From NCBI GenBank assembly GCA_020639315.1, contig JACKGM010000001.1, forward strand, positions 374,767-438,766: a DNA stretch of 64,000 bases. Reading direction: 5' to 3'. This document shows positions 9,090 to 49,000 of the stretch, piece by piece; position 1 is the first letter of the stretch, and the number at the start of each line of letters is the position of its first letter. This DNA comes from Candidatus Nomurabacteria bacterium (GTDB taxonomy: Bacteria; Patescibacteriota; Saccharimonadia; JAGOAT01). The position numbers and the translations under genes were made by a program. The notes below the pieces were generated by a model, which saw only the letters and a list, made by a program, of their open reading frames with translations, did no database searches and was not told the origin of the DNA.

Positions 9090-9668
9090 CGGGATACTGG
9101 ATCCCCCGTAAGTTCTCCGAACTTCGGAGGATGACAATGCTCCTCCTGTCATATTCCAAAATCCTGTAAGGATTTATGGGATATCCAGTATTTGAGTTGA
9201 ATCCCCGGAAATGCAAAATACTGGATCCCCCGTAAGTTCTCCGAACTTCGGAGGATGACAAGAGAAAGGCGGAGTTTCGGAGGATGACAATGCCCTCTGT
9301 GTGTCATCTTCCAAATTTCCGTAGGAAATTATGGGAGATCCACCTCCCGTGTCATCTTCGGATTACCCGGAGGGTAATACCGGAGATCCAGTATTTGAAT
9401 TAGTTGCCCAGTAATACAGAAATACTGGATCCCCCGTAAGTTCTATAACCCTGTTGCCATATAACCTCACGGCTTCAAAACTGCCATTTTTGCCCCAGAC
9501 TAGCAAAACACTTCGCAGCGTAACTCCTGTTATGCTTTGTCGTGTTTTGGTATTCTGGAATAAAAATCATCAGCTTTGACCTCGCAAGTTTATATGGCAA
9601 CAGGGTTTATGAACTTCGGAGGATGACAATGCACAATGCCAGAATACAAGGGAGTTTCGGAGGATGGC
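9090..9668. repeat. REP/BIME-like hairpin-repeat cluster 1 (about 8 units, both orientations)
   Basis: Contains units of the form GTCATC[CT]TC..-hairpin-..GATCCAGTAT and their complements, for example 9148-9186, 9303-9342 and 9351-9391. Confidence 0.9.
9447..9607 (+). mobile_element. MITE-A copy 1 (161 bp, 18-bp terminal inverted repeats)
   Basis: Terminal repeats AACCCTGTTGCCATATAA ... TTATATGGCAACAGGGTT, flanked by TAT (9444-9446) and TAT (9608-9610). It is inserted in the loop of a hairpin-repeat unit (gtaagttc|TAT..TAT|gaacttcgg). Confidence 0.85.
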
Positions 9669-18476: not shown

Positions 18477-18581
18477 GATTCTTGGTTTATACCTGCAAGG
18501 TGTCACCTTGATTACCAGGAATTGCAGGTCGATGGAGGGATTACATTCTTATCGAGGATGCCGAAACCCTACCCCTCTCTT

Positions 18582-18928
18582 GTCATCCTCCGAAACCCCG
18601 CCCTCTCCTGTCATCCTCCGAAACCCCGCCCTCTCCTGTCATCCTCCGAAACCCGAAGGGTTTACGGGGGATCCAGCATTTTGCATTTCCAGGATTCAAT
18701 TCAAATACTGGATATCCCATAAATCCTTACAGGATTTTGGAATATGACAGGGAGAGGATTGTCATCCTCCGAAACCCGAAGGGTTTACGGGGGATCCAGC
18801 ATTCCTGCATTGTGCACGGTCATCCTCCGAAACCCGAAGGGTTTACGGGGGATCCAGCATTTTGCATTTACGGGATTCAACTCAAGTACTGGATCTCATA
18901 AATCCCTGCGGGATTTTGCTATATGATA
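18582..18928. repeat. REP/BIME-like hairpin-repeat cluster 2
   Basis: Two 28-nt half units (GTC at 18582 and 18610), then full hairpin units at 18638-18676, about 18761-18800 and about 18819-18858, with inverted partner units between them. Confidence 0.9.
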
Positions 18929-19356: not shown

Positions 19357-20481
19357 GTGCTAATTCGTCGAAATAAATCCCAGAATCCAAAATCTACTGC
19401 TAGTTATCAAAATCAAAGTAAATCCAGACAATTCCGATTGTTTTTGCCGATGCTTTATCTAATGCTTATTGTATTTAGTCTCAACTTCCAATTACTTCCT
19501 AGTATAATTTCCACTACTGAGCACAGTCAGGCTCAGAGTTTCTCAAAGTCAGTAGATAATTATGGGTTTTTAGAGGTTACCTCTGATCTTTCTAGGTTGG
19601 CACCAGTAGCAGAGCTTTCTACTCAAGTCAATAACGAAGAGCAATCACTTGATCAAAATGATTCTACCAGCCTAGATACGACTGGTGGGGATTTTATTAC
19701 CAAGCCCAAGCCAGTCTTGACCGAAGGTAAAGCCACACGGGATGTTGTAGACTATCAGGTCAAAGAAGGGGACACCGTTTCGACAATTGCGAGTCAGTTT
19801 GGCCTGACTACAGACACTGTCAGATGGGCTAATCAGCTTGAATTGGACCAAGTGCTAGAAGTCGGAGAGACTCTCAAGATTCTGCCGATTGATGGTGTTT
19901 TGCACTGGGTTGAACCCGGGTCTGGTGATACTCTAGATCAGATTTCAGCCTTGTATAAGGTAGATAAAAAAGTGATCGTTAGCTATAACCAGATTCTTGA
20001 TAATAAACTTGAAGATGATATGGTACTAGTAGTTCCTGGAGGTCAGATTGAAGAAGTGGAGGCTAGTCAAGAGACTACCCAAAACCAAGTAGCTCTTGAT
20101 CAGCCCGCAACCACTCAGACATATAACCAGCCAGTACAGGCCAATAGTACTGCTCCAGAAGCTTTGACTAGCTATAGCGGTGGATATAATAACTATGCCT
20201 ATGGGTATTGCACCTGGTATGTGGCTAATCGTCGAGCTGTACCGGCTAGTATGGGCAATGCAGCCAATTGGTATTATGCGGCTCAAGCAGCTGGGTTCGG
20301 AGTAGGCAGTCAGCCAGTAGTAGGGGCAGTGGCTTGGACTCCAGCTGGTTATTATGGACATGTTGCCTATGTCGAAGCAGTTGAAGGAAGCCAAGTGTAC
20401 ATCTCGGAGATGAATTATGCAGGCTGGGGAGTAGTGTCTTATCGCTGGGTACCAGCTAACGCTTTCAGCTATATTTATTAA
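19357..20481 (+). CDS. secreted peptidoglycan hydrolase with two LysM domains and a C-terminal CHAP domain
   Basis: LysM domains: YQVKEGDTVSTIASQFGLTTDTVRWAN and HWVEPGSGDTLDQISALYKV. CHAP domain: YGYCTWYVANRR...GHVAYVE. N-terminal anchor/signal present. Confidence 0.8.
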   Translation: MLIRRNKSQNPKSTASYQNQSKSRQFRLFLPMLYLMLIVFSLNFQLLPSIISTTEHSQAQSFSKSVDNYGFLEVTSDLSRLAPVAELSTQVNNEEQSLDQNDSTSLDTTGGDFITKPKPVLTEGKATRDVVDYQVKEGDTVSTIASQFGLTTDTVRWANQLELDQVLEVGETLKILPIDGVLHWVEPGSGDTLDQISALYKVDKKVIVSYNQILDNKLEDDMVLVVPGGQIEEVEASQETTQNQVALDQPATTQTYNQPVQANSTAPEALTSYSGGYNNYAYGYCTWYVANRRAVPASMGNAANWYYAAQAAGFGVGSQPVVGAVAWTPAGYYGHVAYVEAVEGSQVYISEMNYAGWGVVSYRWVPANAFSYIY

Positions 20482-22076: not shown

Positions 22077-22153
22077 TGGTGGAGTATGGCGGATTCGAAC
22101 CGCCGACCTCTTGCATGCCATGCAAGCGCTCTAACCAACTGAGCTAATACCCC
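22077..22153 (-). tRNA. tRNA-Ala (GGC)
   Basis: The reverse complement reads GGGGTAT TA GCTC AGTTGGTTA GAGC G CTTGC ATGGCAT GCAAG ... GGTTCGAATCC ... ATACTCC A CCA, including the G3:U70 Ala identity pair. Confidence 0.9.
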
Positions 22154-22224: not shown

Positions 22225-22271
22225 TTGAGGGGTCTATAGCTGAAGTAACTCCAGTTTTAACTTTGGGCTAA
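22225..22271 (+). repeat. 47-nt conserved element, copy 1 (second copy at 32520-32566)
   Basis: ttgaggggtctatagctgaagtaactccagttttaactttgggctaa matches 32520-32566 at 45 of 47 positions. Both copies lie just upstream of a sigma70-like promoter. Confidence 0.8.
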
Positions 22272-22289
22272 CAAAGCAGAACATTGATA

Positions 22290-22318
22290 TTGACTTTTAG
22301 GGATTGGCGGGGGATAAT
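22290..22318 (+). promoter_or_regulatory. sigma70-type promoter (TTGACT-17-GATAAT) of the LPSTG-sortase-GT2 operon
   Basis: TTGACT at 22290-22295 and GATAAT at 22313-22318. Confidence 0.5.
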
Positions 22319-22373
22319 AGGAAAGTAAATAAAAAATTTAATTGTAAAGTAATAAGGTAGAAGGAGATTATCA

Positions 22374-22601
22374 ATGTCAGGTAAAGATAATGGAACAGTT
22401 TTGGGTGTAGCGACAACAGTAGGGGGAGCTGGTACAGTATTGGGTGCATCTACCTCTGGGGAAGGCCTCGGTGCAATTACTAGTTTACCGAGTACTGGCG
22501 GTGAGATCGCATTGCATCTTGCTGTGCTAGTTGCTTTGGGCTGTGGTTTGATCATTTTGACTAGTAATTTGATTACTTATCTAGCAAAAAAGTATCAATA
22601 G
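22374..22601 (+). CDS. Gly/Thr-rich LPSTG micro-protein (75 aa), putative sortase substrate without a recognisable signal peptide
   Basis: AAGGAG Shine-Dalgarno. The C-terminus has SLPSTGGE, a hydrophobic span (IALHLAVLVALGCGLIIL) and a basic tail (KKYQ), which is a classical cell-wall sorting signal. The N-terminus MSGKDNGTVLGVATTVGGAGTVLG is not hydrophobic. Confidence 0.7.
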   Translation: MSGKDNGTVLGVATTVGGAGTVLGASTSGEGLGAITSLPSTGGEIALHLAVLVALGCGLIILTSNLITYLAKKYQ

Positions 22602-22610
22602 GCTAGATCT

Positions 22611-23198
22611 ATGAATAGGCTAATCTTTAGCCTAAAACTCGTATTAGTTTACCTAGTAGTGACTGCTTTGTTTTTTGGTGATGAAATTTATACAAAGTAT
22701 CAAGAGTATAAGGTTACTGGTGAGAATCAAGAGCAGTTGGCACAGCTCGAACAAGACGCTTCATTCGAACAAGAATATATTCCTGCTAAGCCAGCCCAGA
22801 TTAGAATCGAGAGATTAGGCGTAGACCTGAAAGTATTGGATGGTGAGTATGATGTCACTAATAGTACTTGGACACTTAGTCAAGATAGCGCTCATTATGC
22901 TTTACAAACCAGTCTACCAAATTTTGATTATGGCAATACCTTGATCTATGGTCACAATCTAGATAATATTTTTGGGAGCCTCAAAGATCTAATTATAGGT
23001 GATATTTTGATTTTAAGCGATTCATCTGGAGTAGAGATCACTTATAAGTTTGTGGGATTTGATTTACTTACACCAAATGACACTTCAATATTTTATTATC
23101 AGGGTGACCCCCAATTGTCACTTTTGACCTGTCATGGATTATTTGATAGCGAGAGATTATTATCAAAATTTCAACCTGTAGGCATTGTATCGAGATGA
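22611..23198 (+). CDS. sortase (transpeptidase)
   Basis: N-terminal TM, IRIERLGVDLKVLDG, catalytic His in GNTLIYGHN, catalytic Cys in LSLLTCHG (TLxTC-type), and a downstream Arg. Confidence 0.85.
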   Translation: MNRLIFSLKLVLVYLVVTALFFGDEIYTKYQEYKVTGENQEQLAQLEQDASFEQEYIPAKPAQIRIERLGVDLKVLDGEYDVTNSTWTLSQDSAHYALQTSLPNFDYGNTLIYGHNLDNIFGSLKDLIIGDILILSDSSGVEITYKFVGFDLLTPNDTSIFYYQGDPQLSLLTCHGLFDSERLLSKFQPVGIVSR

Positions 23199-24460
23199 TA
23201 GATTTTATATTTGGTTTTCTTTCTATACTTGGAATAGTTACACTTTTGAGGGTGACATTATTTTTTATAGGTAGTGATATTTATGAAATTAAGCGAATTT
23301 TTAAACGCCGAAAATTAAGTAAAGTGATTAATTTTCATCCAAGAAATTATCAAGTAACAGTCTTAATCCCTGCACATAACGAAGAGGCAGTGATTATTCG
23401 TTGCCTAGAGTCAGTATTTAAAAGTGAATACAAAAGGATCAAGGTAGTAGTAGTCAATGATGGATCAACTGACCAGACTAAGACTCTAGTCAACAACTAT
23501 AAAGCCTTAAATAAACTTAGTAATCTTAAGCTAATCAATAAGGAGAATTCAGGTAAAGCTGATTCATTAAATTTAGCCCTAGGCAATGTTCGCTCAGCAT
23601 TAGTAATGGTTCTGGATGCAGATTCAATTGTCCAACCAGATACAATCTCGATTGCTGTTCGTCATTTTGATAACACCAAAGTAGTTGCAGCTGCTACCAA
23701 TGTCAGGATTACTCATAATCTAAATAGTATAGTAGGTGCAGTTCAACTTTTAGAGTTTAGCTCATCTTTTCGTTTCAAGCGAGCACTCACAACATTTAAT
23801 ATGGAGTATATTATTGGGGGTATGAGTTTTTTTCGCTATAAGACTCTTAAAAAAGTTGGTTTTTTTGATACTGATACTGTGACTGAGGATATTGATTTGA
23901 CCCTCAAGCTGGTTAGTCTTGGCAATAAGCAGAATCGGATTATTTTTGCGGGAGATTCAATAACCTACACAGAAGGAGCGGGGAGTTTCCGGGCATTACT
24001 CAAACAGAGGTATCGTTGGAAGTATGGAAGGTTTCAGACTTTTGTAAAAAATCGCAAACTATTTTTTAATCGAGATCCGAAATACAGTAGGAGTTTGGCT
24101 TTTTTCTATTTGCCATGGTCACTTGTGCAGGAGTTAATATCCTTACTCGATCCTTTTATTATAATTTTTTGGTTAGTAGTATCAATTTATTTGGGCAACT
24201 ACGGAACCTTTAGGTTTATTATTATTTTTTATACAGTCTTTGTGTTGTTGATTACGATGACTGAGGAAAGGCTGAATTTAGCTGCAAGATTTAGGTTGGT
24301 GGTCTACGCCCCATTGGGCTATTTGTTTTTTTTGACCGTAGGGCTGGTAGAGTACTTAGCATTGATTAGATGTATATTGAACTATCGTAAGATTGTTCAA
24401 CTGGAGCAAGAGATTGGTGGCTGGGATCATATCCAGCGTGATGGTGGTAGTTTAGGGTGA
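23195..24460 (+). CDS. membrane-embedded family-2 glycosyltransferase, processive-synthase type (PgaC/IcaA/NodC/BcsA-like)
   Basis: VNDGSTDQT, LDADS, TEDIDLTLKL and QRYRWKYG (QxxRW), with N- and C-terminal TM spans. The start ATG overlaps the sortase stop (ATGA at 23195-23198). Confidence 0.8.
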   Translation: MIDFIFGFLSILGIVTLLRVTLFFIGSDIYEIKRIFKRRKLSKVINFHPRNYQVTVLIPAHNEEAVIIRCLESVFKSEYKRIKVVVVNDGSTDQTKTLVNNYKALNKLSNLKLINKENSGKADSLNLALGNVRSALVMVLDADSIVQPDTISIAVRHFDNTKVVAAATNVRITHNLNSIVGAVQLLEFSSSFRFKRALTTFNMEYIIGGMSFFRYKTLKKVGFFDTDTVTEDIDLTLKLVSLGNKQNRIIFAGDSITYTEGAGSFRALLKQRYRWKYGRFQTFVKNRKLFFNRDPKYSRSLAFFYLPWSLVQELISLLDPFIIIFWLVVSIYLGNYGTFRFIIIFYTVFVLLITMTEERLNLAARFRLVVYAPLGYLFFLTVGLVEYLALIRCILNYRKIVQLEQEIGGWDHIQRDGGSLG

Positions 24461-25267
24461 TTAGTTAGACTGGATTAGGCTAATAGGTGTATCAAGACTA
24501 ATCAGGGCTCCTAAGAAGTTCTCCAGAAGCCGGGTGTCTTGGCTATCTCCAGGAATTTGATCCCAAAATGAATAGTCAGTCAACCAAACAGTTTGCAAAC
24601 GATTCTCTAGATCCAGCACTATCTCAAGACTTAGTCCTTGATTGTCCAGTAAGTAGGCAAGGTTAAGTATTTGATTGAGCGACTTGAAACGTTGATCTAG
24701 GCTAACACTTATTAGCCGCCTCTGATGATAATAGACTTTTGCAATGCCTAGCTGAAGGATTACCTCAAATCTATCAGTTCTTAGCACTTTTATTAAGTCA
24801 TAGACCTCTTGTAATTGGCGGCTAGTGATTGGGCTAGTTATTTCTAAATCTAGGGTGACTGACTGGTTTGGATTTAAATCTAAGGCCAAATCTTGGAGAT
24901 TCTTTGACCAATTTTGAGTTTCAAGCTGGATAGTTTGAGGATTGATCGATCCCAAGTAGTTGGTATTAGATAGATGATAGGTATTGTTTAGTTTAAGCTT
25001 AGGACAGATTAGAGAGGTCAGGTCTTCGATTTTGTAGGTTGCAATTTGGCTGATTTCATATTCGGGGGTGGACTTAATAGCTAGTGGTTGCTCAGAACAG
25101 TATTTGCTATAAGAGTCATCTATCTGGTATTGGCTGGATTTCTTATCAATTCTGAGCTGGTTACTAAAGTGGTGATAGGTAATAATGACCGATATAGTAC
25201 CGACTGCAAAACCAAACGCGATCAAGCTGGGTAGTAATATATCAGCCCTAAACCTAGGTAATCGCAT
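24461..25267 (-). CDS. N-terminally anchored hypothetical protein (268 aa)
   Basis: TM span LLPSLIAFGFAVGTISVIITY. The start ATG directly follows the stop of the upstream GT2 gene (TAAATG). Confidence 0.5.
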   Translation of the reverse strand: MRLPRFRADILLPSLIAFGFAVGTISVIITYHHFSNQLRIDKKSSQYQIDDSYSKYCSEQPLAIKSTPEYEISQIATYKIEDLTSLICPKLKLNNTYHLSNTNYLGSINPQTIQLETQNWSKNLQDLALDLNPNQSVTLDLEITSPITSRQLQEVYDLIKVLRTDRFEVILQLGIAKVYYHQRRLISVSLDQRFKSLNQILNLAYLLDNQGLSLEIVLDLENRLQTVWLTDYSFWDQIPGDSQDTRLLENFLGALISLDTPISLIQSN

Positions 25268-26500
25268 TTATATCCCTTTCCTCTCCCATTTTTGCCATTG
25301 TAGTTGTCGCTTTCTGATACTCAGATAAACACTTTGCATTAATGCTAGATATTCAACCCAAACCAAAATATAAATCAGTGGCCAGAGATAGATCCAAGAT
25401 AGGCCAAACCTGAGTTTATGTCTAGGTACCTCAAAGATTGCTAGAATAATAAAACCTATCGCAAAGAAACTAATACTAAGAGCTAGCCCCAAAGGATTAC
25501 GCTTGATTACATTATCTATAAAAAAATAACTCAGCGAGATTGGCTCGATCAATAGCTGAAACTCTAGAAGAACTGAACTGGGTAATAGTCCCCAGGTCAA
25601 GAGTTTGTTGTGTTGGGGTTTTCTTGAGAAGAACATTTCACGATATTTGTCAAAAGTTTCAAATCGACCCTTTTTCCAACGAATTCTTTGTTTGACTAGA
25701 CCATAGATACTACTTGCTCCTTCGGTATAGCAAACTACATCACTAGCATACTTACTTCTTAGGCCATGAAATTGTGTTCGAAGTGACATTTCTATGTCCT
25801 CAGTAAGATTTGCGGTGTCAAACTCTCCAAATTGATCAAAAGTCAATGATTTACGGAAGGCTGCACAGGCTCCACCAAAGATATATTCGATACCTAGAAG
25901 TGAATTAGCCTTCTTGGCATAAAAGCCAAAACTGTATTCAAAGTATTGGAGGTAACCAATCAGGCTTTGGTAGTTGGCAATCTCTACTCGTCCTACCAAG
26001 CCTGCCAGCTCAGGGTCTTGGAAATGGATAGAGAGATGATATAAAGCTTGGTCGTCTAGAATTGAGTCCGCATCCATTGTCATAATTATCTCGGAGGTTG
26101 CCAGCTTGAGCCCTTGATTCAGGGCATGACCTTTACCAGCATTGGCTTGATAGTGATAAATAATTTTTTCATCTGGATGCTTTTTGATAAAAGTTTTGAT
26201 AATTTTATCTGAGTCGTCAGTCGATCCGTCATTGATGACTATTATTTCTAGGTTTGGGTAATGGTTGTCGATTACAGACTGAATAGTTTTGGTGATCCCG
26301 ACCGCTTCATTCCAGGCTGGGATGATTACACTGATTGAGACGGGAGGGGAATTGATCTGTTGATAACGTTTTGCTTTCAAGATTTCTTTGAGGTCATAGA
26401 TAGGTGCAATCAGCATTACAAACAAATAGCGGATTAATAGGCTGGCAGTGCCAACAATCACGATTAGTCGGAGGGACTGATAAAGAAAATCAATAATCAA
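25268..26500 (-). CDS. membrane-embedded family-2 glycosyltransferase, processive-synthase type
   Basis: INDGSTDDS, MDADS, TEDIEMSLR and QRIRWKKG (QxxRW), with flanking TM spans. It overlaps the upstream gene by 4 nt. Confidence 0.8.
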   Translation of the reverse strand: MIIDFLYQSLRLIVIVGTASLLIRYLFVMLIAPIYDLKEILKAKRYQQINSPPVSISVIIPAWNEAVGITKTIQSVIDNHYPNLEIIVINDGSTDDSDKIIKTFIKKHPDEKIIYHYQANAGKGHALNQGLKLATSEIIMTMDADSILDDQALYHLSIHFQDPELAGLVGRVEIANYQSLIGYLQYFEYSFGFYAKKANSLLGIEYIFGGACAAFRKSLTFDQFGEFDTANLTEDIEMSLRTQFHGLRSKYASDVVCYTEGASSIYGLVKQRIRWKKGRFETFDKYREMFFSRKPQHNKLLTWGLLPSSVLLEFQLLIEPISLSYFFIDNVIKRNPLGLALSISFFAIGFIILAIFEVPRHKLRFGLSWIYLWPLIYILVWVEYLALMQSVYLSIRKRQLQWQKWERKGI

Positions 26501-27318
26501 GTTGCTTCTCCTGAACCAAACTGGTAGATTTGGATTGGGTTTGAGTCAATAATGATAGATAGGCTGTAGGATTGAGGATTAGTTGAGGGTTGATAAAGAG
26601 TATCAATACGGGTTAGATTGTAGACTTGACGATTTATTTGCTCCGATTGGCCATTCTCTAGAATCAAGGGTGAGCCAAGCTCTAGATTTGTAATCGAATC
26701 TATTGATTCTTGCTCAGCCAAAGTAATAATGGTTTGGTCAGGAGTATGCCAGTAAAGATTTTGCCCATAGTCTAGATAGATTTTATCAAGGGTCACTGGG
26801 TAGGTAACTTTCTCCACAGATAAGGCTAAGGGGTTAATCAAATAAATGCTCGGTCGGCTTTGATCGAAAGTTAGAGTTAGGTTGGGGTTTTTATCAATAA
26901 TCTTTACCCCCTGACTGATTGGTAGATCGATTGCCAAGCTCTTTTCAATACTTGATCCGAAGATCATCAGTGTGACCCCACTAATCAATAGGTAGAAACC
27001 GAGTTGGATTAGTCGCCCAAGACTTAAATGTTGAGTGAAGTTTGTTTTTATTTTTTTTGGCTTATTCTTGTTACTAAAGCCAAGTTTTGGCTTTAGTAGT
27101 CTGGTAAAAGTTTTTACGAAGATATTAAGGATTAGACTAAGCAAGATAAAGCTTAGTAAAATGTCAAGCAATACGCCATGGCTAAGTCTAAGAGTATGGT
27201 AGGTGGAAATCAGATCAGATAACATCAAGGGTGCAGCGGCAACTAATATTAAAAATAGTGCTTGGAGCAAGAATCTCCAGACTAGAGTTACCAAGGATAT
27301 TATAACGTCCTCCTTCAA
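26497..27318 (-). CDS. polytopic/bitopic membrane protein (hypothetical)
   Basis: Three hydrophobic spans, then a ~150-aa soluble part. The start is uncertain: TTG at 27318 has no Shine-Dalgarno, and the ORF overlaps the upstream ORF by 104 nt. Confidence 0.45.
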   Translation of the reverse strand: MKEDVIISLVTLVWRFLLQALFLILVAAAPLMLSDLISTYHTLRLSHGVLLDILLSFILLSLILNIFVKTFTRLLKPKLGFSNKNKPKKIKTNFTQHLSLGRLIQLGFYLLISGVTLMIFGSSIEKSLAIDLPISQGVKIIDKNPNLTLTFDQSRPSIYLINPLALSVEKVTYPVTLDKIYLDYGQNLYWHTPDQTIITLAEQESIDSITNLELGSPLILENGQSEQINRQVYNLTRIDTLYQPSTNPQSYSLSIIIDSNPIQIYQFGSGEAT

Positions 27319-27874
27319 TATCTAGACTCAAGCTACGATTGCTAAGGTTATTTATAGTAAAGCTAGACTGGTTGGGAGCTAGTTGGATTTGGTAAACATT
27401 TAGCATTTGGTTATTTGGGCTAAGGTTCGAAATGTTAAATATGTTCGGCATAGCTTGAGTAGTAGGCAATACTGGCCCAAGAGGATCAACAGTGGTAATA
27501 GGCTCAAGGGGAGGTAAAGGCTGCTCTTCATCAAAGCTAGTCTGGTCGGTAATTGAGGATGTTGACTGGGTAGAGTCATTACTTGGGACACTGGAAGTAG
27601 ATTGGGGATTTGAGCTTGAGCTAGGGTTGGAGTTTTCTGCCGGTTGACTATTAATGATACTAGCCTGGTCGGAATTCGCAGCTTGGGCATTTTGATTGGA
27701 TGGTTTCTGATTATTTGAAGTCTCGATTTTAACAAAGTTTGGCAAATCGGCTAGATCAAAGCGTAACTTGACTGGGCTTCTGATCGCTAGATCTAAGCCA
27801 ATCCCCAATGTGAATAGTAATACCATATGCAGGATTAATTTTCGCTTTTTAAATGTTTTGCTTGGCAACTTCAA
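27215..27874 (-). CDS. secreted/anchored Ser-Pro-Gln-Asn-rich low-complexity protein (hypothetical)
   Basis: AAGGAGG Shine-Dalgarno 5 nt before the TTG start, an N-terminal anchor (LILHMVLLFTLGIGL), and a long S/P/N/Q-rich region. Confidence 0.5.
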   Translation of the reverse strand: MKLPSKTFKKRKLILHMVLLFTLGIGLDLAIRSPVKLRFDLADLPNFVKIETSNNQKPSNQNAQAANSDQASIINSQPAENSNPSSSSNPQSTSSVPSNDSTQSTSSITDQTSFDEEQPLPPLEPITTVDPLGPVLPTTQAMPNIFNISNLSPNNQMLNVYQIQLAPNQSSFTINNLSNRSLSLDIEGGRYNILGNSSLEILAPSTIFNISCRCTLDVI

Positions 27875-27992
27875 TTTGACCTCCTTTGTCCCTCAATTCT
27901 CTTAAGTTTATTATATATGATCCTGTAAGTTTATTATATATGATCCTGGGTTGGTTGGCTAGTGATTATATACCTATAGATTGTGTGAAGTT

Positions 27993-28009
27993 TCGCGAAC
28001 AGTTCGCGA
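27993..28009. promoter_or_regulatory. 17-bp perfect palindrome TCGCGAAC-A-GTTCGCGA (candidate operator), copy 1
   Basis: Exact inverted repeat in the divergent control region between 27874 (-) and 28097 (+). Identical copies occur at 42297-42313 and 42342-42358. Confidence 0.6.
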
Positions 28010-28096
28010 CAACTTGGGGATTATAAATACTGGGCTTGCTATTTTCCCTCAGTAGTTTACAATTAGGTTTGTATCAGTAAAAATAGGAGGGAGAAA

Positions 28097-28333
28097 GTGT
28101 CAGATATTACAACAGGTCAGGTTTTGGGTGTGTCAACAGTATTGGGTGGAGCCGGGGCAGTAGCGATCAACCTAGGAGATAGTGGTTCAGTCCTAGGGGA
28201 TAGTATTACCAGTGGAGTGGGAGTATTGCCTAGTACCGGTGTTGCGATCGGGATTTTGATTGCAGTAGCCGTGGGTTTAATCTTAGCTTTATTGACTGTT
28301 ACTCGCTTGCGCACTAAATCATCAGAGAAGTAA
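28097..28333 (+). CDS. Gly/Ser-rich LPSTG micro-protein (78 aa), paralog of 22374-22601
   Basis: AGGAGGG Shine-Dalgarno with a GTG start. The N-terminus MSDITTGQVLGVSTVLGGAGAV parallels the first micro-protein. The C-terminus has VLPSTG, a TM span and the basic tail RLRTKSSEK. Confidence 0.7.
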   Translation: MSDITTGQVLGVSTVLGGAGAVAINLGDSGSVLGDSITSGVGVLPSTGVAIGILIAVAVGLILALLTVTRLRTKSSEK

Positions 28334-28351
28334 TCAATCGACTGAATTATT

Positions 28352-29713
28352 TTGAGTCTAAATGGGGTATTCGATCTGATTGCTATGATCAACTTCGTGT
28401 TGGTCTTGTTGGGTATTAGCGTATACAGTTATATATTTTTTGCAGCAATTTACTACAACCGATTATATAAAAGTTTGATTAAGGGCCATGATAGATTGGA
28501 TCAGGACAAACAAATTGAGAGTACCAATCAGGTAGAAGCTAGTCCATTTTTATCTGATATAAGGATTAGTACTAATTATCTACCTAGTATTACAATTATC
28601 ATACCTGCCTACAATGAAGAGCAGGTTATTATTCAGTGCCTAAATAGTATTGCCAAGCTAGAATATCAGAAGCTCAAAGTAGTAGTCGTGGATGATGGTT
28701 CGATAGACCAGACGGCAGAACTAGTCCGAGGGTTTATTGATCAGCATCGGCTCAGTCCAAATCCATACCAGATCGACTTTTACTTACTTTGTCAGGCCAA
28801 TCAAGGTAAGGGCGCAGCACTCAATAATGCGATTTTTGATTATACCGATAGTGAGATAGTCGGATGCCTGGATGCTGATAGTGAGATTGATCCTCAAGCT
28901 ATTGCCAATGCCATCAAACACTTCAATCTAGACAATTCAATTATTGCGGTTTCTAGCTATATAGATGTGATCAAGAAGCCAAGTTTGTTTTATTGGCTCC
29001 AAAAGATTGAATATCTGATTGCTTTTGGCCTCAAGAAAGGTGTGACTAGGGCAAACATGGATTATTTATTGCCTGGTCCGGGGTCATTTTTTCTCAGAGA
29101 AAGTATTCTTGAAATCGGAGGCTATGATCATGATACAATTACTGAAGACCTTGGCTTGTCGCTCAAGATCGTAGATTCTGAACTGGAAAATAAAAAGCTG
29201 TATTTTGCCAGTGATGTGATTACTCGGACTGAGCCAGTCTCAAGCTGGCAAGACTTGTATCGCCAAAGAAAACGCTGGATTAGAGGGTGGTTTCAGAACC
29301 TCTTGAGATATCGCAATCTGCTTTTAAGCACCGACAAAAAGCATAGCTGGCAACTGACAGTATTCTACCTTCCCTATCTAGTGATCAGTCAATTTTTTGG
29401 TGTATTTCAGATCAGTATTCTAGTAGTAACGATGGTGATTGGTCTGATTGCTGGTAACCCTTGGATTTTGGTCATCCAGATAGTCTCAATCCAGGCCTTG
29501 GTGCTATATTTTATCTTTAGCGATGTTAATCTTGGGCCCAAATCAGAACGCTGGAAATTAAGCCTTGGATCATTCTCTGTGATCGGGATGCTAGTGGGGC
29601 TGAATCTTTTGCAGGCTGGGATTACGGTCGGAGAATATGGGAGGATGCTCTGGGGAATAGTCAGGCCAGATATCAAAGATTCTGGCAGATGGCAACATGT
29701 CTCCCGGGGGTGA
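28352..29713 (+). CDS. membrane-embedded family-2 glycosyltransferase, processive-synthase type
   Basis: VDDGSIDQT, LDADS, TEDLGLSLK and QRKRWIRGW (QxxRW), with N- and C-terminal TM spans. Confidence 0.8.
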   Translation: MSLNGVFDLIAMINFVLVLLGISVYSYIFFAAIYYNRLYKSLIKGHDRLDQDKQIESTNQVEASPFLSDIRISTNYLPSITIIIPAYNEEQVIIQCLNSIAKLEYQKLKVVVVDDGSIDQTAELVRGFIDQHRLSPNPYQIDFYLLCQANQGKGAALNNAIFDYTDSEIVGCLDADSEIDPQAIANAIKHFNLDNSIIAVSSYIDVIKKPSLFYWLQKIEYLIAFGLKKGVTRANMDYLLPGPGSFFLRESILEIGGYDHDTITEDLGLSLKIVDSELENKKLYFASDVITRTEPVSSWQDLYRQRKRWIRGWFQNLLRYRNLLLSTDKKHSWQLTVFYLPYLVISQFFGVFQISILVVTMVIGLIAGNPWILVIQIVSIQALVLYFIFSDVNLGPKSERWKLSLGSFSVIGMLVGLNLLQAGITVGEYGRMLWGIVRPDIKDSGRWQHVSRG

Positions 29714-29734: not shown

Positions 29735-29811
29735 GGCTGAGTAGCTCAGGTGGTTAGAGCACCAGATTCATAAACTGGAGGTCACAGGTTCAAATCCCGT
29801 CTCAGCTACCA
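29735..29811 (+). tRNA. tRNA with CAU anticodon (Met or Ile2)
   Basis: GGCTGAG TA GCTC AGGTGGTTA GAGC A CCAGA TTCATAA ACTGG ... GGTTCAAATCC ... CTCAGCT A CCA. The fold has a G1:U72 pair and single mismatches in the anticodon and T stems. TGcTATACT at 29717-29725 lies 9 nt upstream. Confidence 0.75.
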
Positions 29812-29851: not shown

Positions 29852-32278
29852 ATGCAGAAGTATAGTCCGATTGAGCTTGAGAAGAAGTGGCAAAAGATTT
29901 GGGAAGAAACTGAGATCTATCAGACTCCAGTTGATCCCAAAAATCCTTACTATTGCTTGGTGATGTTTCCGTACCCCAGTGGAAACTTACATGTTGGACA
30001 TTGGTATAATTTTGCCTTGGCTGATAGCCTGGCAAGATACAAAAAAATGCAAGGGTATGATTTACTGAGTCCGATTGGATTTGATTCTTTTGGTCTTCCT
30101 GCTGAGAATGCTGCTATCAAACGGGGTCTAGCAGCTGATCAATGGACTGCCGATAATATCTCCCAGATGAAGGTTCAGCTTAAGTCGATCGGAGCTATCT
30201 ATGACTGGGATCGAACTCTATCTACCTCAGACCCCGAATACTACCACTGGACCCAATGGCTATTTTTACAGTTTTATCAATCAGGTCAAGCTTACCAGTC
30301 AGAAGCCTTGGTCAACTGGGATCCGGTCGATCAAACTGTACTTGCCAACGAGCAAGTTGTAGACGGTAGAGGTGAACGCTCGGGGGCATTGGTCGAGAAG
30401 AAAAGACTCAAACAATGGTTTTTTAGAATTACTGATTATGCCGATGAGCTACTCGATCAGCTAGACAATCTAGATTGGCATGACAATATCAAGCAGATGC
30501 AGCGTAACTGGATTGGTAAGAGTCAGGGTAGTCAACTTGGTTTTGCCGTCAAGGGTAAGGATCTAATGATTGAAGTGTTTACTACTCGAATCGATACCTT
30601 GGCTGGGGCAACATTTTTGGTCTTAGCTCCCGAGCATGATTTGGTTGAAAAGATAGTGGAAGATCAGTATCGGGCAAAGGTCAAAGATTATCAGAAACAA
30701 GTAGCCAGTATGACCAATCTCGATCGAATTCAATCGGATAATAAAGATGGAGTATTTACCGGGGCTTATGCAGTCAATCCCTTGACCAATCAAAGGATGC
30801 CAGTCTATATTGCTGAGTATGTTTTACCCGAATATGGCACAGGCGCGATTATGGCAGTACCTGCCCATGATCAGAGAGATCACCAGTTTGCTACTAAGCA
30901 CGGATTAGAGATTATTGAAGTGATTGATTCGGGCGGGGCTGGGGTAGAGGAGCAGGCCTATGAGGATGAGGGTTTGCTGATTAACTCTGAGCGATTTAAC
31001 GGTCTTGCTAAAGAGGAAGCCAAACGAGCCATTACTCAGTATCTGGCTGATACCAATCGTGCAAAGCTGGTTACTAACTATCGCTTGAAAGATTGGCTAA
31101 TTTCTCGCCAAAGATATTGGGGTTGCCCGATTCCGATCATCTACTGTGACAAATGTGGGGTAGTGCCAGTACCAGAAGAGGATTTGCCAGTGATTTTACC
31201 ACTTGAGCAAGAATTTGATAATGCTGCCGATTCACCGTTGAAGCGCCACCCAGATTATCTTAAACTTAACTGTCCAGCCTGTGGCGACAGTAATGCTAGG
31301 CGAGAAACTGACACTCTGGATACTTTTGTCGATTCGAGTTGGTATTTCTTAAGATATACTGACAACCATAACTCTCAGCAACCGTTCAATCAAGATAAAG
31401 TCAATCAGTGGATGCCAGTTGGGCATTATATCGGGGGGATTGAACATGCGGTAATGCACCTACTTTATGCTCGGTATTTCACTAAGGCATTGGCAGACCT
31501 AGGTCTTTTAGAATTTCGTGAGCCATTTAAGAGATTGACCAATCAAGGAACTATTCTTGGCCCCGATGGTCAAAAGATGAGCAAATCCAAAGGCAATGTA
31601 GTTGATCCCGATCAATATGTCAGCCAGTATGGGTCAGATAGCGTTCGTACTTACTTGATGTTCTTGGGGCCATTTAGCCAAGGTGGTCCTTGGGATGATT
31701 CGAGATTTGAGGGTATTACTAGATTTTTGACTAGACTTTATAGTCTGGTAGTCGATCCCTATGAACCAGGTGATTTTGAAGCTGATCAAGAGATGGAAAT
31801 GGTTCAGAAGCTACATGCTACGATTAAAAAACTAGGTCAAGATCTAGAGGAACTGAAATTTAATACAGCTGTAGCTAGCTTGATGGAGCTGGTTAGCTTG
31901 ATGCAGGACAAGAAGAATCAAGGGGTAATCTCGAATGATGTTTGGCATCAGAGTCTCAAGTATCTGAGCCTAATCTTGGCGCCAATCACTCCACACTTGG
32001 CTGAAGAGTTTTGGCAACACTTAGGAGAAGAGCAGAGCGTCCATCTCCAGGGTTGGCCAGCCTATGACCCTGAAGTGATTGAGCAAACAGAGCTAACCAT
32101 TCCGATTCAAATCAATGGCAAGAAGCGCTCAGAGATTTTGGTTGCCCAGGGGCTAGATCGTGAAGAGGTGACGAGGTTGGTACTCGATAATGCTCGAGTC
32201 CAGCAATTGCTTGAGGGGAGAGAACCGGATAAAATTATTGTCGTACCGGATAGGATTGTAAATATTGTGTTGGATTAA
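29852..32278 (+). CDS. leuS: leucine--tRNA ligase
   Basis: HIGH-type motif PSGNLHVGH, KMSKS, a CP1 editing region and zinc-finger cysteines. 808 aa. Confidence 0.95.
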   Translation: MQKYSPIELEKKWQKIWEETEIYQTPVDPKNPYYCLVMFPYPSGNLHVGHWYNFALADSLARYKKMQGYDLLSPIGFDSFGLPAENAAIKRGLAADQWTADNISQMKVQLKSIGAIYDWDRTLSTSDPEYYHWTQWLFLQFYQSGQAYQSEALVNWDPVDQTVLANEQVVDGRGERSGALVEKKRLKQWFFRITDYADELLDQLDNLDWHDNIKQMQRNWIGKSQGSQLGFAVKGKDLMIEVFTTRIDTLAGATFLVLAPEHDLVEKIVEDQYRAKVKDYQKQVASMTNLDRIQSDNKDGVFTGAYAVNPLTNQRMPVYIAEYVLPEYGTGAIMAVPAHDQRDHQFATKHGLEIIEVIDSGGAGVEEQAYEDEGLLINSERFNGLAKEEAKRAITQYLADTNRAKLVTNYRLKDWLISRQRYWGCPIPIIYCDKCGVVPVPEEDLPVILPLEQEFDNAADSPLKRHPDYLKLNCPACGDSNARRETDTLDTFVDSSWYFLRYTDNHNSQQPFNQDKVNQWMPVGHYIGGIEHAVMHLLYARYFTKALADLGLLEFREPFKRLTNQGTILGPDGQKMSKSKGNVVDPDQYVSQYGSDSVRTYLMFLGPFSQGGPWDDSRFEGITRFLTRLYSLVVDPYEPGDFEADQEMEMVQKLHATIKKLGQDLEELKFNTAVASLMELVSLMQDKKNQGVISNDVWHQSLKYLSLILAPITPHLAEEFWQHLGEEQSVHLQGWPAYDPEVIEQTELTIPIQINGKKRSEILVAQGLDREEVTRLVLDNARVQQLLEGREPDKIIVVPDRIVNIVLD

Positions 32279-32285
32279 GTGACTT

Positions 32286-32510
32286 GTCATCCTCCGAAAC
32301 CCCGCCCTCTCCTGTCATCCTCCGAAACCCGTCCCTTGTCTTGTCACCCTCCGAAACCCGAAGGGTTTACGGGGGATCCAGTATCCCTGTATTTACAGGT
32401 ATCCAATTCAAATATTGGATCTCCGGTATTACCCTCCGGGTAATCCAAAGATGACCCAACTCCTGTCATCCTCCGAATCCTCATAGAGGATTACGGGGGA
32501 TCCAGTATTC
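32286..32510. repeat. REP/BIME-like hairpin-repeat cluster 3
   Basis: Begins 8 nt after the leuS stop. Half units have GTC at 32286 and 32314. Full units are at 32343-32381 and 32465-32505, with an inverted unit at about 32415-32455. Confidence 0.9.
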
Positions 32511-35823: not shown

Positions 35824-36218
35824 TCCCGTCATCCTCCGAAACTCGCCCCTTGTCTTGTCATCCTCCGAAACCCGTCCCTTGTCTTGTCATCCTCCGAAGT
35901 TCGGAGAACTTACGGGGGATCCAGTATTCGGGCATTTGCATTGTCATCCTCCGAATTATCCTTAAGAGAATTACGGGGGATCCAGTATTTCGCATTGTCC
36001 TGACTCCTAATACAAATACTGGATCTCCGGTATTTCCCCAAGGGGAAATCCGAAGATGACAAGAGGGGATGGATCTCCCATAAATCCTTACAGGATTTTG
36101 GAAAATGACCCACCTCCTGTCATCCTCCGAAACTCCGCCTTTCTCCTGTCATCCCCGAAACCTGTCCCTCCCCTGTCATCCTCCGAAACCCGAAGGGTTT
36201 ACGGGGGATCCAGTATTC
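35824..36218. repeat. REP/BIME-like hairpin-repeat cluster 4
   Basis: Phased half units, then full units (for example 35885-35925, 35943-35985 and 36174-36215) with inverted partners. Confidence 0.9.
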
Positions 36219-44214: not shown

Positions 44215-44715
44215 ACAGAATACTGGATCCCCCGTAAGTTCTCCGAACTTCGGAGGATGACAATGCCTCCTCTCTTGTCATCTTCGGATTTCTCTAAGGG
44301 AGAAATACCGGAGATCCAGTATTTGAGTTGAACCCCAGAAATACAGAATACTAGATCACCCGTAAACCCTCTGGGTTTCGGAGGATGACAGAATAGGGGT
44401 GGAACTTCGGAGGATGACAGGAGTTGAGTCATCCTCGACAATTCCCGCCCTTCATTTGAAGGGAATTATCGGGGATCCAGAACTCTAGATTATGCACTGG
44501 ATTAACTCAGTTACTTTTAATGTTTATTATTTGTTTTCTGGATACCCAGAGCAAGCTCTGAGTATGACGGATGCAAATACGGGATACTGGATCACTCGTA
44601 AACCCTCTGGGTTTCGGAGGATGACAATGCCCTCTGTCGCCAAATCAAATTTCCACCCCCTCTTCGCGTCATCTTCCAAATTTCCGTAGGAAATTATGGG
44701 AGATCTAGTATTTGG
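44215..44715. repeat. REP/BIME-like hairpin-repeat cluster 5
   Basis: Multiple units. The ~107-nt composite at 44221-44327 recurs at 50333-50437, and the ~85-nt segment at 44508-44595 recurs at 58972-59056. Confidence 0.9.
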
Positions 44716-46033: not shown

Positions 46034-49000
46034 ATGAGACAAAAGTTGAATTTGTTTGGTAAATTAGGGGCAAGAAAGTCAATAATTACTTTGACCGGGT
46101 TAGGACTGGTCATAGCCGGAGTGGCCAATATTGCTTCAGTCAGCGGTCTTAATACCCAGACTAGCAATAATCAGACTCTGAGCAAGGATGTCAACCCGAT
46201 AGTCAGCGGTAACCCTGACTATACTGCCACCACTGTAGATGCTGGGGGCGAACTCCAGTGGATTATAGAATACGGTAATGATACGGGTAGTATAGTAGAC
46301 CCGGTCACAATCACTGATGATATTACTGGTGGTCAACAGTATGTAGCTGGTAGCTTAGATGTCCCAATTGGCTGGGAAGAAGGGTATTCAACTGATGCTG
46401 GCAATACGTATAGCCCAGTCGAGCCGGCTGCGAGTAGTGTCAACTCAATTCAAGCCACAGGCAATCGAATTACCTCTCCTGCTACAGGTATCAATGGTCT
46501 AATACCTGCCCCAGTGGCTTCGGTCAATCAGGATAAATCAGTCACCCATGGCGATGGTTTTGTCCCAATTGTTTACCGTAATGGAGATATCTATCGAGTT
46601 TACAATATTTATCATCACAATTCCTGGGAAGATGGGGACGCTACAGGTCTAATCAATTGTTTTGATGTCAATGTCGGTGACTATTGTGCTGATACTAGTT
46701 TTGATTATACTGGTGGCCTTTACACTCCCTTGACAGGAGTGGATGTCCAGACTTCTTGGTTCCCCGAGGGGCAACAGGCAGTGATAGATGGCAAGTTTTA
46801 TTATGCAGTTCATCAAGAGAATACCAGCAATGTCGGGGTAGGTTGTCTGGATTTGGCGACTGGTGTGGACTGTGCTACCAACCCATATACTCAGATCAGT
46901 AATAATGCTCCTTGGTATACCTATGCAGACGCAAGTAAGAATCACCATGCTGGTATTGAGGGGCCAGCGGTTGTCGGGGATGTGATTTATTTCTTTGTCC
47001 GTCATAGCGATGGTAAGCTCTATATGCATAGCTACAATACTACTACTGGAGTAGCAAACACGACAGGAGTTCAAATTGTTACCACTGGTACTTATGCTAA
47101 TAATGTTGCTGGGAATGAAGGCGAAATGTATGTACCGTATGAAGTCGTGGGAACAAAAATATACTTTACTATTAACTTCCAGATAAGTGATGATACTAAC
47201 GGTATCCAATATGCCGAATTTGGATGTTTTGATACAGCTAGCAATACTGCTTGTTCTGGTTTTTCTAGCACTAAACTATTACAGTTTTCTAACCAGAAAT
47301 CTAATGTGGGTACACAGACCTGGGTTTATTATTCAGTATTTGGACTCTATGATACATCTGGTAGTGTAGTGGCCGTATGTACTACTGCAAACCTAGAATT
47401 GATGCTTACTGGGTATATTAACTCGACCTTTACAGGATATCCAAAATCAGAATGTTATAGCCAATCAGGATCTAAATATAATGGATCAGAAATAGCTCCT
47501 TTTGCAACATTTTGGGAGAATGATGTCAACCCAAGTCTGCCAGCAACAGAAGGTACAAGTATAGGTGTCGATGGAGATGTCTTGGTGGAAGAGTTATATA
47601 TTGCTAATGGTACCCAAGGTATATCAGGTAATCGTACATATTTTTCAATTCGTACTACTGATCAATATGATAATGTTAATCCGTATGGAGCAGTAGCTTG
47701 TTATGACTTTACAACTCAGTCTGGTTGTGCCAACTTTGGTAATGGTGGACTGGCACAATTCCCATCAATCAATGGAGGTGCTACCAAAGACTATGGCTAT
47801 GACTATGATCAAGTCAGTGGCTGCATGTGGGGGCTAGGTGATGAAGGTTATCTCTGGAGTTTTGACGCTGAGACTGGTGCTAGCCCATGTAGCTCAATCT
47901 CAGAAACTATTCAGCTGGACCTCACCCCTGACAATTTCTACTGTGATGGACAAAGTGACAATTATATCCAAGGTTGGGATAGTCTGACTATCTTGGAGCC
48001 TGGAACTGGTGTTCCTAGTACAGTCAGCTACACAGTGACTGTCTATGATGTCAACAATAACCCCATATCTGGGTATCAAAATGTAGCGCCAGATGCCAAC
48101 AATCAGCTAGACCTCAGCGCGATTGATAGTACGACCTACTCGAGCTTGAGAGTAGAAGTGACAGCTAGCGATAGCAATAATGGTACCAGCTGGACCAATA
48201 CTATACCAGTGATGCTGACATTTAGCGCTACTCACAATCCACAGATTTGTTATAGCACAATCGTGCCTGATAATTGTGATATTTCTTCAGCTGATAATAC
48301 TGCAGTAGTTGATGCCGATGGGACTATCATCAGTGTCAGTGATAGTATTGAGATAGTCAATCAGTCCAATTGTGATCCTGGTAGAATCGGCAATCAGGTC
48401 TGGAATGATCTTGATCATGACGGGGTATTTGACCCAGGCGAGCCCGGGATACCTGGAGTGACGATCAAGCTCTACCAAGGTATTTGTGCAGATCACACCA
48501 CTTCTTCTACCTCTATGGCTACCACCACTACCGCTTCAGATGGCACTTATTACTTCAATAGTCTACCAGTCGACCAGAATTATTATGTGGTAGTAGACAG
48601 ATCTAGTAGCAGTGTATTGACCAATTATACCAATTCTACTGGTCCCGATCATACTGCTGATGGCAACTCCAAGTCTGAAGATTGTTACGAGGTCAGTTTG
48701 ACTACCGCTAGTCCCAGCAACCTGACCGCAGATTTTGGTTACTATGCTGGACGGATTGGTAATCAAGTCTGGGTAGATTCAGACCGAGATGGTATTTTCG
48801 ATGCTGGAATTGAGAATGGAGTCGCTGGAGTATCAATCGATCTTTATCAAGGTACTTGTGACCAACACACTACTAGTTCAACAATTCTTGCCACAGAGGC
48901 AACGGCTTCAGACGGTACATATTACTTTGATGGTTTAGCTTTGGATCAATCGTACTATGTGATTGTAGATCGGTCTGGAAGCAGTATTGCTAACTATCAA

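Follow-up and report, generated by a model that had tools for sequence, protein, structure and literature searches.

Mini LPXTG proteins without a signal peptide as putative minimal sortase substrates in a conserved sortase and glycosyltransferase module of Saccharibacteria

Known sortase substrates and small membrane proteins

By the textbook definition, a sortase substrate has a signal peptide at its N-terminus and a sorting signal at its C-terminus. The mini LPXTG proteins examined here resemble the classical LPXTG substrates (TIGR01167/PF00746) in their LPXTG motif with a free X, in the hydrophobic segment and basic tail that follow it, and in the position of their genes beside a sortase gene; ordinary substrates even hold the same genomic slot in some relatives. 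They differ from the classical substrates in having no signal peptide and essentially no passenger, the whole protein being 51–78 aa long. Sortase substrates are mostly exported by the Sec pathway, and Tat-dependent ones were presented as new in 2024 (PMC10924467).

Very small sortase-motif proteins have already been noticed by curators, as the existence of the model NF058583 ('LAXTG motif-containing small protein', 54 positions) indicates. This curated family is defined by LAXTG rather than LPXTG, and it could be compared with the present one by model score and name only. Weak matches to nearly the whole model were obtained for 13 of 37 relatives of the mini proteins, the best at 21.9 bits (positions 1–46 of 54) against a cut-off of 65 bits that no relative reached, and the two proteins of the locus under study, A and B, gave no match to it. 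The mini family may be distantly related or analogous to the NF058583 family.

A second comparison is offered by SafA, a protein of about 52 aa with a single transmembrane (TM) helix that is tightly linked to the actinobacterial housekeeping sortase gene (PMC9282373). SafA is encoded downstream of the sortase, adopts an N-in/C-out topology, carries an exoplasmic FPW motif and no LPXTG, and acts as a signal-peptidase antagonist (PMC9282373). The mini proteins share with SafA the small size, the single TM helix and the tight sortase linkage, but their genes lie upstream of the sortase, their charges predict N-out/C-in, and they contain neither an FPW nor a PGP motif, which sets them apart from the SafA proteins.

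In terms of membrane insertion, YidC is able to insert the N-tails of Pf3 coat and MifM in the absence of a signal peptide (PMC8920935). These proteins also combine a short N-tail and a single TM helix with a C-tail that is basic and cytoplasmic, and they provide a mechanistic model for N-tail export. They differ from the mini family in that their N-tails are acidic instead of neutral to +1, in that they have no sequence relationship to it, and in that they are not sortase substrates. With regard to the neighboring glycosyltransferases, PgaC and IcaA function with the small membrane partners PgaD and IcaD, which are encoded downstream of the synthase, with two TM helices reported, and lack LPXTG. 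The mini proteins are likewise small membrane proteins beside a PgaC/IcaA-like glycosyltransferase of family 2 (GT2), but they differ from IcaD/PgaD in gene position, in the number of TM helices and in having LPXTG, and no similarity between the two groups was detected.

Signal-less or mini LPXTG proteins were not described in any paper returned by a literature search, nor were sortase substrates of Saccharibacteria, and sortase is not mentioned in a 2025 review of small membrane proteins. The comparisons below point to a conserved module in Saccharibacteria, formed with a sortase and a GT2 by signal-peptide-less, passenger-less proteins whose identity as minimal sortase substrates we infer.

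Genes A and B and their neighborhood

The window analyzed is a stretch of 64,000 nucleotides from a Candidatus Saccharibacteria genome, with a G+C content of 43% (assembly GCA_020639315.1). An earlier note on this DNA had described two short LPSTG-encoding ORFs on the + strand, and inspection of the ORFs found both where it had placed them (Table 1). The encoded proteins are MSGKDNGTVLGVATTVGGAGTVLGASTSGEGLGAITSLPSTGGEIALHLAVLVALGCGLIILTSNLITYLAKKYQ (A) and MSDITTGQVLGVSTVLGGAGAVAINLGDSGSVLGDSITSGVGVLPSTGVAIGILIAVAVGLILALLTVTRLRTKSSEK (B, read from its GTG start). The N-terminal pattern that had been assigned to both, M-S-x4-G-x-VLGV-[AS]T-x2-GGAG-x-V, is exact in A and B, and the two are paralogs, as had been claimed (46% identity over 69 residues, E=6e-8, BLASTP). 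Both also possess the LPXTG, hydrophobic and basic elements of a sorting signal that had been noted: in A, LPSTG is followed by about 27 mostly hydrophobic residues and KKYQ, and in B by 21 hydrophobic residues and RLRTKSSEK. The segments that span the motif are GAITSLPSTGGEI in A, VGVLPSTGVAI in B and ASLPQTGISK in a conventional 1340-aa protein of the same window. Public copies of A carry the name 'hypothetical protein [Candidatus Saccharibacteria bacterium]'.

The strong Shine-Dalgarno sites described for the two genes, AAGGAG for A and AGGAGGG for B, are present. A promoter-like site 5′ of gene A is weak evidence, because such sites are no commoner in the region than in shuffles; promoter and terminator scans of the region both gave counts that were not above those in shuffled sequence. 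Rfam detected tRNAs alone in the window, and the idea of an upstream riboswitch or leader RNA was rejected on this ground.

Table 1. Positions of genes A and B, their signals and neighboring features in the window.
Feature	Position	Strand	Remarks
LysM/CHAP hydrolase	19357-20481		
Promoter-like TTGACT-17-GATAAT 5′ of gene A	22290-22318	+	consensus match alone, 10/12 positions
Shine-Dalgarno AAGGAG of gene A	22361-22366	+	7 nt 5′ of ATG
Gene A, mini LPXTG protein	22374-22601	+	ATG start, 75 aa
Parts of gene A			N-tail, residues 1-37; LPSTG, 38-42 (nt 22485-22499); TM, ~45-63 (nt 22506-22562); tail KKYQ
Sortase	22611-23198	+	195 aa, N-terminal membrane anchor; PF04203, 56.4 bits vs cut-off 26.6
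GT2a, processive family-2 membrane glycosyltransferase, PgaC/IcaA-like	23195-24460	+	QRYRW motif; third gene of apparent operon
Shine-Dalgarno AGGAGGG of gene B	28085-28091	+	5 nt 5′ of GTG
Gene B, paralog of A	28097-28333	+	GTG start, 78 aa
Parts of gene B			N-tail, residues 1-43; LPSTG, 44-48 (nt 28226-28240); TM, ~49-67 (nt 28241-28297); tail RLRTKSSEK
GT2c, processive GT2	28352-29713	+	directly 3′ of gene B; start uncertain, TTG 28352 or ATG 28385
Conventional LPQTG surface protein	46034-50056	+	1340 aa; basic, hydrophobic N-terminal signal peptide; internal control

Gene A, the sortase gene and GT2a form an apparent operon, in which the sortase starts 10 nt after gene A and overlaps GT2a by 4 nt. 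The sortase contains the sortase domain and the catalytic triad, with His115, Cys174 and Arg182 invariant in 17 relatives, and the enzyme looks active. When it was compared with the NCBIfam class models A–F and GN, no class cut-off was reached, the best scores being 34 bits each, for class D (cut-off 140–165) and for class GN (cut-off 158). Each of the 17 relatives matches several of these models, with no E value among the matches listed better than ~1e-13, and the nearest PDB sortases (E ~1e-9) are equally distant and belong to classes A, C, D and E. On these scores the sortase falls in no curated class. An AlphaFold2 model built from a 3-sequence alignment was poor (pLDDT 56.5), and the class assignment rests on the profile searches instead.

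The three GT2s of the window scored 153, 183 and 132 bits on TIGR03937 (poly-beta-1,6-GlcNAc synthase), the first of these being GT2a. The equivalog cut-off is 422, so that neither GT2a nor the other two is an equivalog; judged from their profile matches, the neighboring GT2s are processive enzymes of the same broad type as PgaC and IcaA. GT2c is paralogous to GT2a (32% identity), and between the two, on the opposite strand, is another paralog, GT2b. The pairing of gene B with a GT2 is kept in loci L003 and L004. Elsewhere in the window, the conventional LPQTG protein is presumed to be an ordinary substrate of the same sortase, and the presence of a cell wall is implied by the LysM/CHAP hydrolase.

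Orthologs of A were found in loci L001 and L007–L009, and orthologs of B in L003–L006, with protein identities of 85–88%. Compared with these, A and B gave dS values of 0.69–0.83, dN values of 0.075–0.089 and dN/dS ratios of 0.09–0.12 (Nei-Gojobori), with 27–28 of 41–43 substitutions located at third codon positions of the + frame. The ratio was about 0.1 for A, compared with L001, L007 and L009, and 0.12 for B. The orthologs of B have kept the GTG start and have the motif LPNTG; L, P, T and G are common to the two paralogs, and X is S or N among the B orthologs. Lack of conservation or of purifying selection had been named in the earlier note as a result that would speak against its proposal. 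The comparison was carried out, and with dN/dS at this level and LPxTG kept, A and B are genuine genes under purifying selection. In assembly GCA_017983775.1, the trio of A, sortase and GT2 is intact at another place (L007), and the B-GT2 pair is at the same place as in the window (L003), which means that both paralogs have been retained across a divergence of dS ~0.7–0.8.

The ORFs on the opposite strand (22268-22555 and 28117-28392), which had been explained as shadows of these genes, are open only across their overlap with the Gly/Val/Ala-rich codons of A and B. In the orthologs they have lost both their start codons and their extensions, and the changes fall at third positions of the + frame, in agreement with that explanation.

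A mini LPXTG family upstream of related sortases

Homologs of A and B were sought with a word-indexed search and with a full HMMER profile run against 1.84 billion representative proteins, and both returned only the two clusters of A and B themselves. GTDB genome contigs were also scanned, once with the sortase and once with the A/B alignment, and gave nothing that was confirmed. Synteny with the sortase alone, and not a direct homolog search, revealed the wider family. It was recovered from 52 metagenomic loci, fetched with the sortase alignment, whose sortases are 29–44% identical. The loci were scanned for C-terminal sorting signals and the starts were then refined, with the upstream count limited to the 44 loci that have at least 250 nt upstream.

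In 40 of these 44 independent loci, a mini LPXTG gene (51–63 aa) immediately precedes the sortase gene in the same orientation, with a median gap of about 78 nt. With A and B included, the family spans 51–78 aa. Its members have the form MYG(K)-VLG-x-LPxTG-TM-basic tail, and the alignment yielded the consensus M-Y-G-(P)-K-[VI]-L-G-x(5-9)-G-[IVA]-[AS]-[LV]-L-P-x-T-G-[DSN]-[NS]-R-x-L-F, followed by the TM helix and then by A-R-K-x-R-x-S-E-A-N. The LPXTG motif is preceded by 11–24 residues in the relatives (median 17). Its L, P, T and G are nearly invariant, and its X is any of 10 different residues across 37 relatives; together with the LPxTG kept in A, B and their orthologs, this shows selection on the sorting signal. 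A GGAG-type Shine-Dalgarno sequence (AAGGAG type) lies just 5′ of the M-Y-G start in 35 of 38 family members. Ten members were looked up in the public protein collection, and for all of them the gene callers behind it had arrived at the same short proteins with the same starts; the named entries are called 'hypothetical protein' and come mostly from Candidatus Saccharibacteria. According to these comparisons, the mini LPXTG family is conserved across diverse Saccharibacteria and is unannotated. Its genes are labeled 'hypothetical' or are not called, and any census of LPXTG proteins that requires a signal peptide would miss them.

In the remaining four of the 44 loci, the slot is taken by an LPXT[AS] gene. 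This gene is complete in L045, L060 and L061, where it encodes a protein of 183–217 aa with a signal peptide; in L037 the contig ends within the ORF. The sorting signal of the slot proteins of the L045/L060/L061 type resembles that of the mini protein of L063. Because ordinary substrates occupy the same slot, the gene upstream of this sortase is likely to be that of its cognate substrate, which would mostly have been reduced to the sorting signal. The LPXTG_anchor model TIGR01167 was matched by 31 of the 37 relatives, several of them above its cut-off (20.7–23.7 bits). A did not match the LPXTG anchor models, and B scored below the cut-offs (14.5 bits vs 15.9 for TIGR01167 and 14.8 vs 20 for PF00746), so that neither protein is recognized by a sorting-signal HMM at its cut-off. 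Apart from this generic anchor, the mini proteins gave no match above cut-off in Pfam or NCBIfam.

The relationship of A and B to this family is seen in the N-terminal half by pairwise BLASTP and MAFFT alignment, not by profile-profile comparison; in hhalign, the profiles of A/B and of the mini family aligned over the sorting-signal half only (88.5% probability), where homology is supported. A is 36% identical to the mini protein of L034 over 55 residues (pairwise E ~1e-10, BLASTP), with which it has the C-terminus ...KKY in common, and its pairwise E value with the mini protein of L025 is ~1e-9. The MAFFT alignment showed that A and B carry one extra N-terminal unit, x-VLGV-x-T-x2-GGAG, ahead of the standard unit x-VLG-x-S...G-x3-LPxTG. 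The two units of A are GTVLGVATTVGGA and GTVLGASTSGEGL, which are identical at 23 of 39 nt. The extra unit is the best conserved stretch between A and B, from which it follows that the duplication is older than the split of A and B and is under constraint. By these alignments, A and B are lengthened, derived members of the mini LPXTG family.

A processive GT2 gene adjoins the sortase in 28 of the 29 loci with at least 1 kb downstream, co-directionally in 7 of them and convergently in 21, and one related locus also has a protein with CBM and polysaccharide deacetylase alongside. The conservation of this three-gene neighborhood and the location of B before a GT2 suggest that the partners act together in the construction of an envelope polymer. 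Neither the derivation of A and B from a sortase-linked family nor the GT2 as a third partner was part of the earlier note.

Membrane topology and possible functions

The earlier note had named an upstream start that provides a signal peptide as a finding that would overturn its claim. The starts of A and B are the first ATG, GTG or TTG codons after an in-frame stop, which leaves no hidden N-terminal extension, and the mini relatives have no room for a signal peptide, with just 11–24 residues ahead of LPXTG; an upstream signal peptide is thereby excluded. The N-terminal regions were then compared on the Hessa scale with seven signal peptides or anchors from this genome and the related loci. 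The best 12-residue and 19-residue windows were +2.5 and +4.5 kcal/mol in A and +2.1 and +4.0 kcal/mol in B, with a charge before the window of 0 and -1, respectively. The seven controls had best 12-residue windows of -0.8 to -2.6 kcal/mol and a charge before the window of +2 to +7. Because both hydrophobicity and charge are outside the range of the controls, A and B have no canonical signal peptide, as had been claimed, and they lack the Sec or Tat signal of a classical substrate. Their N-terminal regions had also been described as polar with no hydrophobic core. The term polar was not quite apt, since these ~40 residues are nearly uncharged, rich in Gly, Val, Thr, Ala and Ser, and weakly hydrophobic; the conclusion that they form no canonical signal peptide holds. 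Export of A and B by the Tat pathway was rejected, as no twin-arginine motif is found in the two sequences.

The best 19-residue windows of the C-terminal helix were -1.5 kcal/mol in A and -3.6 kcal/mol in B. In the 37 relatives, the net charge of the C-tail is +1 to +4 (at least +2 in 36 of them) and that of the N-tail is -1 to +2, with most at +1. The N-tail net charge is -1 in A (K4, D5, E30) and -3 in B (D3, D28, D35), and their C-tails are at +2 to +3. A and B thus have the features of YidC-type clients, namely a short N-tail in which positive charges are not in excess, a single TM helix and a basic C-tail. Under the positive-inside rule, the combination of a basic C-tail with an uncharged N-tail predicts N-out/C-in for A and B. 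A net charge of +1 on the N-tail is mildly unfavorable for its unassisted translocation. By homology with the relatives, the N-terminus of A and B is an elongated N-tail and not a signal peptide. A tail-anchored, N-out topology is favored. The tail-first insertion proposed earlier is supported as far as sequence analysis goes, both by the charge pattern and by an N-terminus too weakly hydrophobic to span the membrane.

The explanation that we consider reasonably probable is that A and B are genuine minimal sortase substrates which reach the membrane tail-first, N-out/C-in, without a signal peptide. In effect, each would be a cell-wall sorting signal that stands by itself, preceded by a short N-terminal tail rich in Gly, Val and Thr. 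The route of insertion, the cleavage, the acceptor and the role of the peptides are what we infer as follows. The peptide would be synthesized without a signal peptide, and its single C-terminal hydrophobic helix would enter the membrane with the basic tail remaining cytoplasmic, while the uncharged N-tail (37–43 residues in A and B, 11–24 in most relatives) would be flipped out, as YidC does for Pf3 coat and MifM. This would position LPSTG at the outer face of the membrane, where it would be open to cleavage between T and G by the membrane-anchored sortase encoded next door. The sortase would then join the N-terminal peptide to an amine of the envelope, most likely lipid II or peptidoglycan. 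A would be the cognate, co-transcribed partner of the sortase, and B is a retained paralog ahead of a paralogous glycosyltransferase. The conserved GT2 neighbor suggests that the peptide may act in the same envelope or exopolysaccharide process.

The family has kept only the C-terminal sorting signal, with almost no passenger, and its genes lie where a sortase locus carries the cognate substrate. Should the peptides be processed, tail-first insertion, whether by a YidC-type route or unassisted, would be compatible with sortase action, and the bacterium would be investing in stapling a peptide of ~16–45 residues to its wall. The surface of Patescibacteria mediates their attachment to host bacteria, and the conservation of a processive glycosyltransferase in the neighborhood suggests that this phylum has a module for building the envelope that is as yet unexplored.

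Some observations weigh against a substrate role. There is no obvious reason for anchoring to the wall a peptide that has no passenger domain, and gene B does not adjoin a sortase. The strongly conserved extreme N-terminus (MYG...; VLG) is not explained by service as a mere substrate, and the weakly hydrophobic, Gly-rich segment of A and B leaves a small chance of a hairpin topology.

One alternative is that the peptide is a partner or regulator of the sortase that is not turned over. It would reside in the membrane, bound to the enzyme through its TM helix or through LPXTG as a pseudo-substrate, and would stabilize or gate it in the manner of SafA. Such a role would suit a small single-pass protein with an invariant co-directional linkage to the sortase, no passenger domain to display and a conserved extreme N-terminus. 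We nevertheless regard it as unlikely. SafA is unlike the mini proteins in its downstream gene, its N-in/C-out topology, its FPW motif and its missing LPXTG, and no sortase gene is found beside paralog B. A true substrate would better account for a free X within a fixed LPxTG and for the canonical substrates that fill the same slot in L045, L060 and L061.

The mini LPXTG peptides might also serve as carriers, in which the signal-less, Ser/Thr/Gly-rich N-tail either receives the polymer of the neighboring processive GT2 or nucleates it, and the sortase staples the conjugate to peptidoglycan. This proposal is speculative and we consider it decidedly unlikely. If true, an ultra-small, epibiotic bacterium would be using a sortase to tether exopolysaccharide to its wall, and sortase substrates would have a third way of export in addition to Sec and Tat. 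Pilin-like polymerization through the Lys of 'MYGK' was rejected as a general explanation, because a Lys in the N-tail occurs in only 24 of the 37 relatives and B has none.

It is quite improbable that the peptide is instead an accessory subunit of the neighboring processive GT2, similar to IcaD/PgaD, with LPXTG being incidental or secondary. The GT2 is convergent in 21 of 28 loci, and in these it is not co-transcribed with the small gene, which is always co-directional with the sortase. Furthermore, LPxTG is the best conserved element of the family, and the NCBIfam and Pfam scans gave no similarity to IcaD/PgaD models. What speaks for such a subunit is that B lies directly upstream of GT2c without a sortase, a pairing kept in a second genome, that 28 of 29 loci have a GT2 beside the sortase, and that the GT2s are PgaC/IcaA-like.

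For A and B alone, the duplicated Gly/Val-rich N-terminal unit could be a weak, uncleaved or atypical signal, or a first TM helix, so that the protein inserts as an N-in hairpin through Sec, the route of classical substrates. The Kyte-Doolittle maxima of this region (1.8–2.0 over 9 residues and 1.3–1.6 over 19) and its GxxxG-type spacing are compatible with a helix of this kind, but the Hessa energy of +4.0 to +4.5 kcal/mol for 19 residues and the lack of a basic n-region (net 0 and -1, vs +2 to +7 in the genome's own signal peptides) make it very improbable. A hairpin would also be a novelty of this lineage, because the 11–24-residue N-tails of the relatives cannot form one.

Finally, the view of A and B as non-functional chance ORFs, or as shadows of the antisense ORFs, might be suggested by their short, low-complexity sequences and by the two clusters of their own that the HMMER search returned, but it is hardly credible and is refuted by the dN/dS of ~0.1 in the + frame, the Shine-Dalgarno sites and synteny kept in diverged genomes, the recurrence of the family across 40 loci and the disappearance of the antisense starts in the orthologs.

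Position of the A-sortase-GT2 cassette in a relative

The cassette formed by gene A (a 75-aa mini LPXTG protein), its sortase and the processive family-2 glycosyltransferase GT2a has a different position in the related assembly GCA_017983775.1 (L003 3813-5774 and L007 9767-11847). In this relative, the position flanked by obg and the GT2 cluster is occupied by a 653-aa Big_9 protein carrying an LAKTG sorting signal, not by the A-sortase-GT2 cassette, which is found on a different contig, where it adjoins ApbE. This gene order means that, among close relatives, the cassette has either changed its place or been replaced. In the window, the region is bracketed by a pair of tRNA genes.

Features of the window and of related loci (L014, L024, L032)
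Feature	Position	Strand	Remark
tRNA gene	22080-22153	-	one of bracketing pair
tRNA gene	29735-29808	+	one of bracketing pair
Membrane or secreted protein	24461-25267	-	no family match
Membrane or secreted protein	26497-27318	-	no family match
Membrane or secreted protein, Ser/Pro/Asn-rich	27215-27874	-	no family match
Interspersed repeat, placed sites	9272-9289, 18573-18897, 32277-32482, 35827-36191, 44373-44626, 50485-50644, 59103-59120, 62989-63163		core TGTCATCCTCCGAAACCC
Secreted protein, 720 aa, CBM_4_9 repeats and polysaccharide deacetylase domain	L014 2163-4325	-	divergent from mini-peptide/sortase pair
Divergent mini protein	L024 139-303		LA[NT]TAG subgroup
Divergent mini protein	L032 3568-3723		LA[NT]TAG subgroup

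The GT2 cluster and gene B

Three paralogous processive GT2 genes lie inside 6.5 kb (23195-29713), and interleaved among them are three genes for membrane or secreted proteins, all on the minus strand. Two of these listed ORFs, 26497-27318 and 27215-27874, share 104 nt; the downstream one, 26497-27318, therefore probably starts later than listed.

A perfect tandem duplication of the AT-rich 23-nt unit TAAGTTTATTATATATGATCCTG (27903-27948) lies in the intergenic region that separates gene B, the paralog of gene A, from the divergently oriented 219-aa gene (minus strand, start 27874). This duplication may represent an operator, or a promoter element present in two copies. In the public protein collection, the best match of gene B has a JGI metagenome as its only source, is listed at 99% identity and begins with V. 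Because no NCBI-sourced protein was found among the matches for gene B in this collection, while gene A has one, the annotation deposited for the source genome may lack a call for gene B.

Mini proteins and neighbours in related loci

The mini proteins of L024 and L032, relatives with a G+C content of 31-33%, start with MYDP-x-IGQVLG and lack the D/N-R-x-LF segment, and their genes have no Shine-Dalgarno site; in L032 the mini gene and the start of the sortase gene overlap by 17 nt. LA[NT]TAG replaces LPXTG in both proteins; it is possibly an altered sorting motif whose changes track those of its sortase. In L014, the CBM_4_9/deacetylase protein together with a convergent GT2 resembles a PNAG-type synthase and deacetylase set.

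An interspersed repeat

Allowing up to 2 mismatches, the window has 22 copies of the core TGTCATCCTCCGAAACCC, compared with 0 expected by chance. The repeat is often arranged as tandem 28-nt units and as larger copies of ~79 nt, and every placed site is intergenic. The 'PPKPEGFTGDP / ILRNP' ORFs at 18508-18926 and 32279-32454 are spurious products of this repeat.
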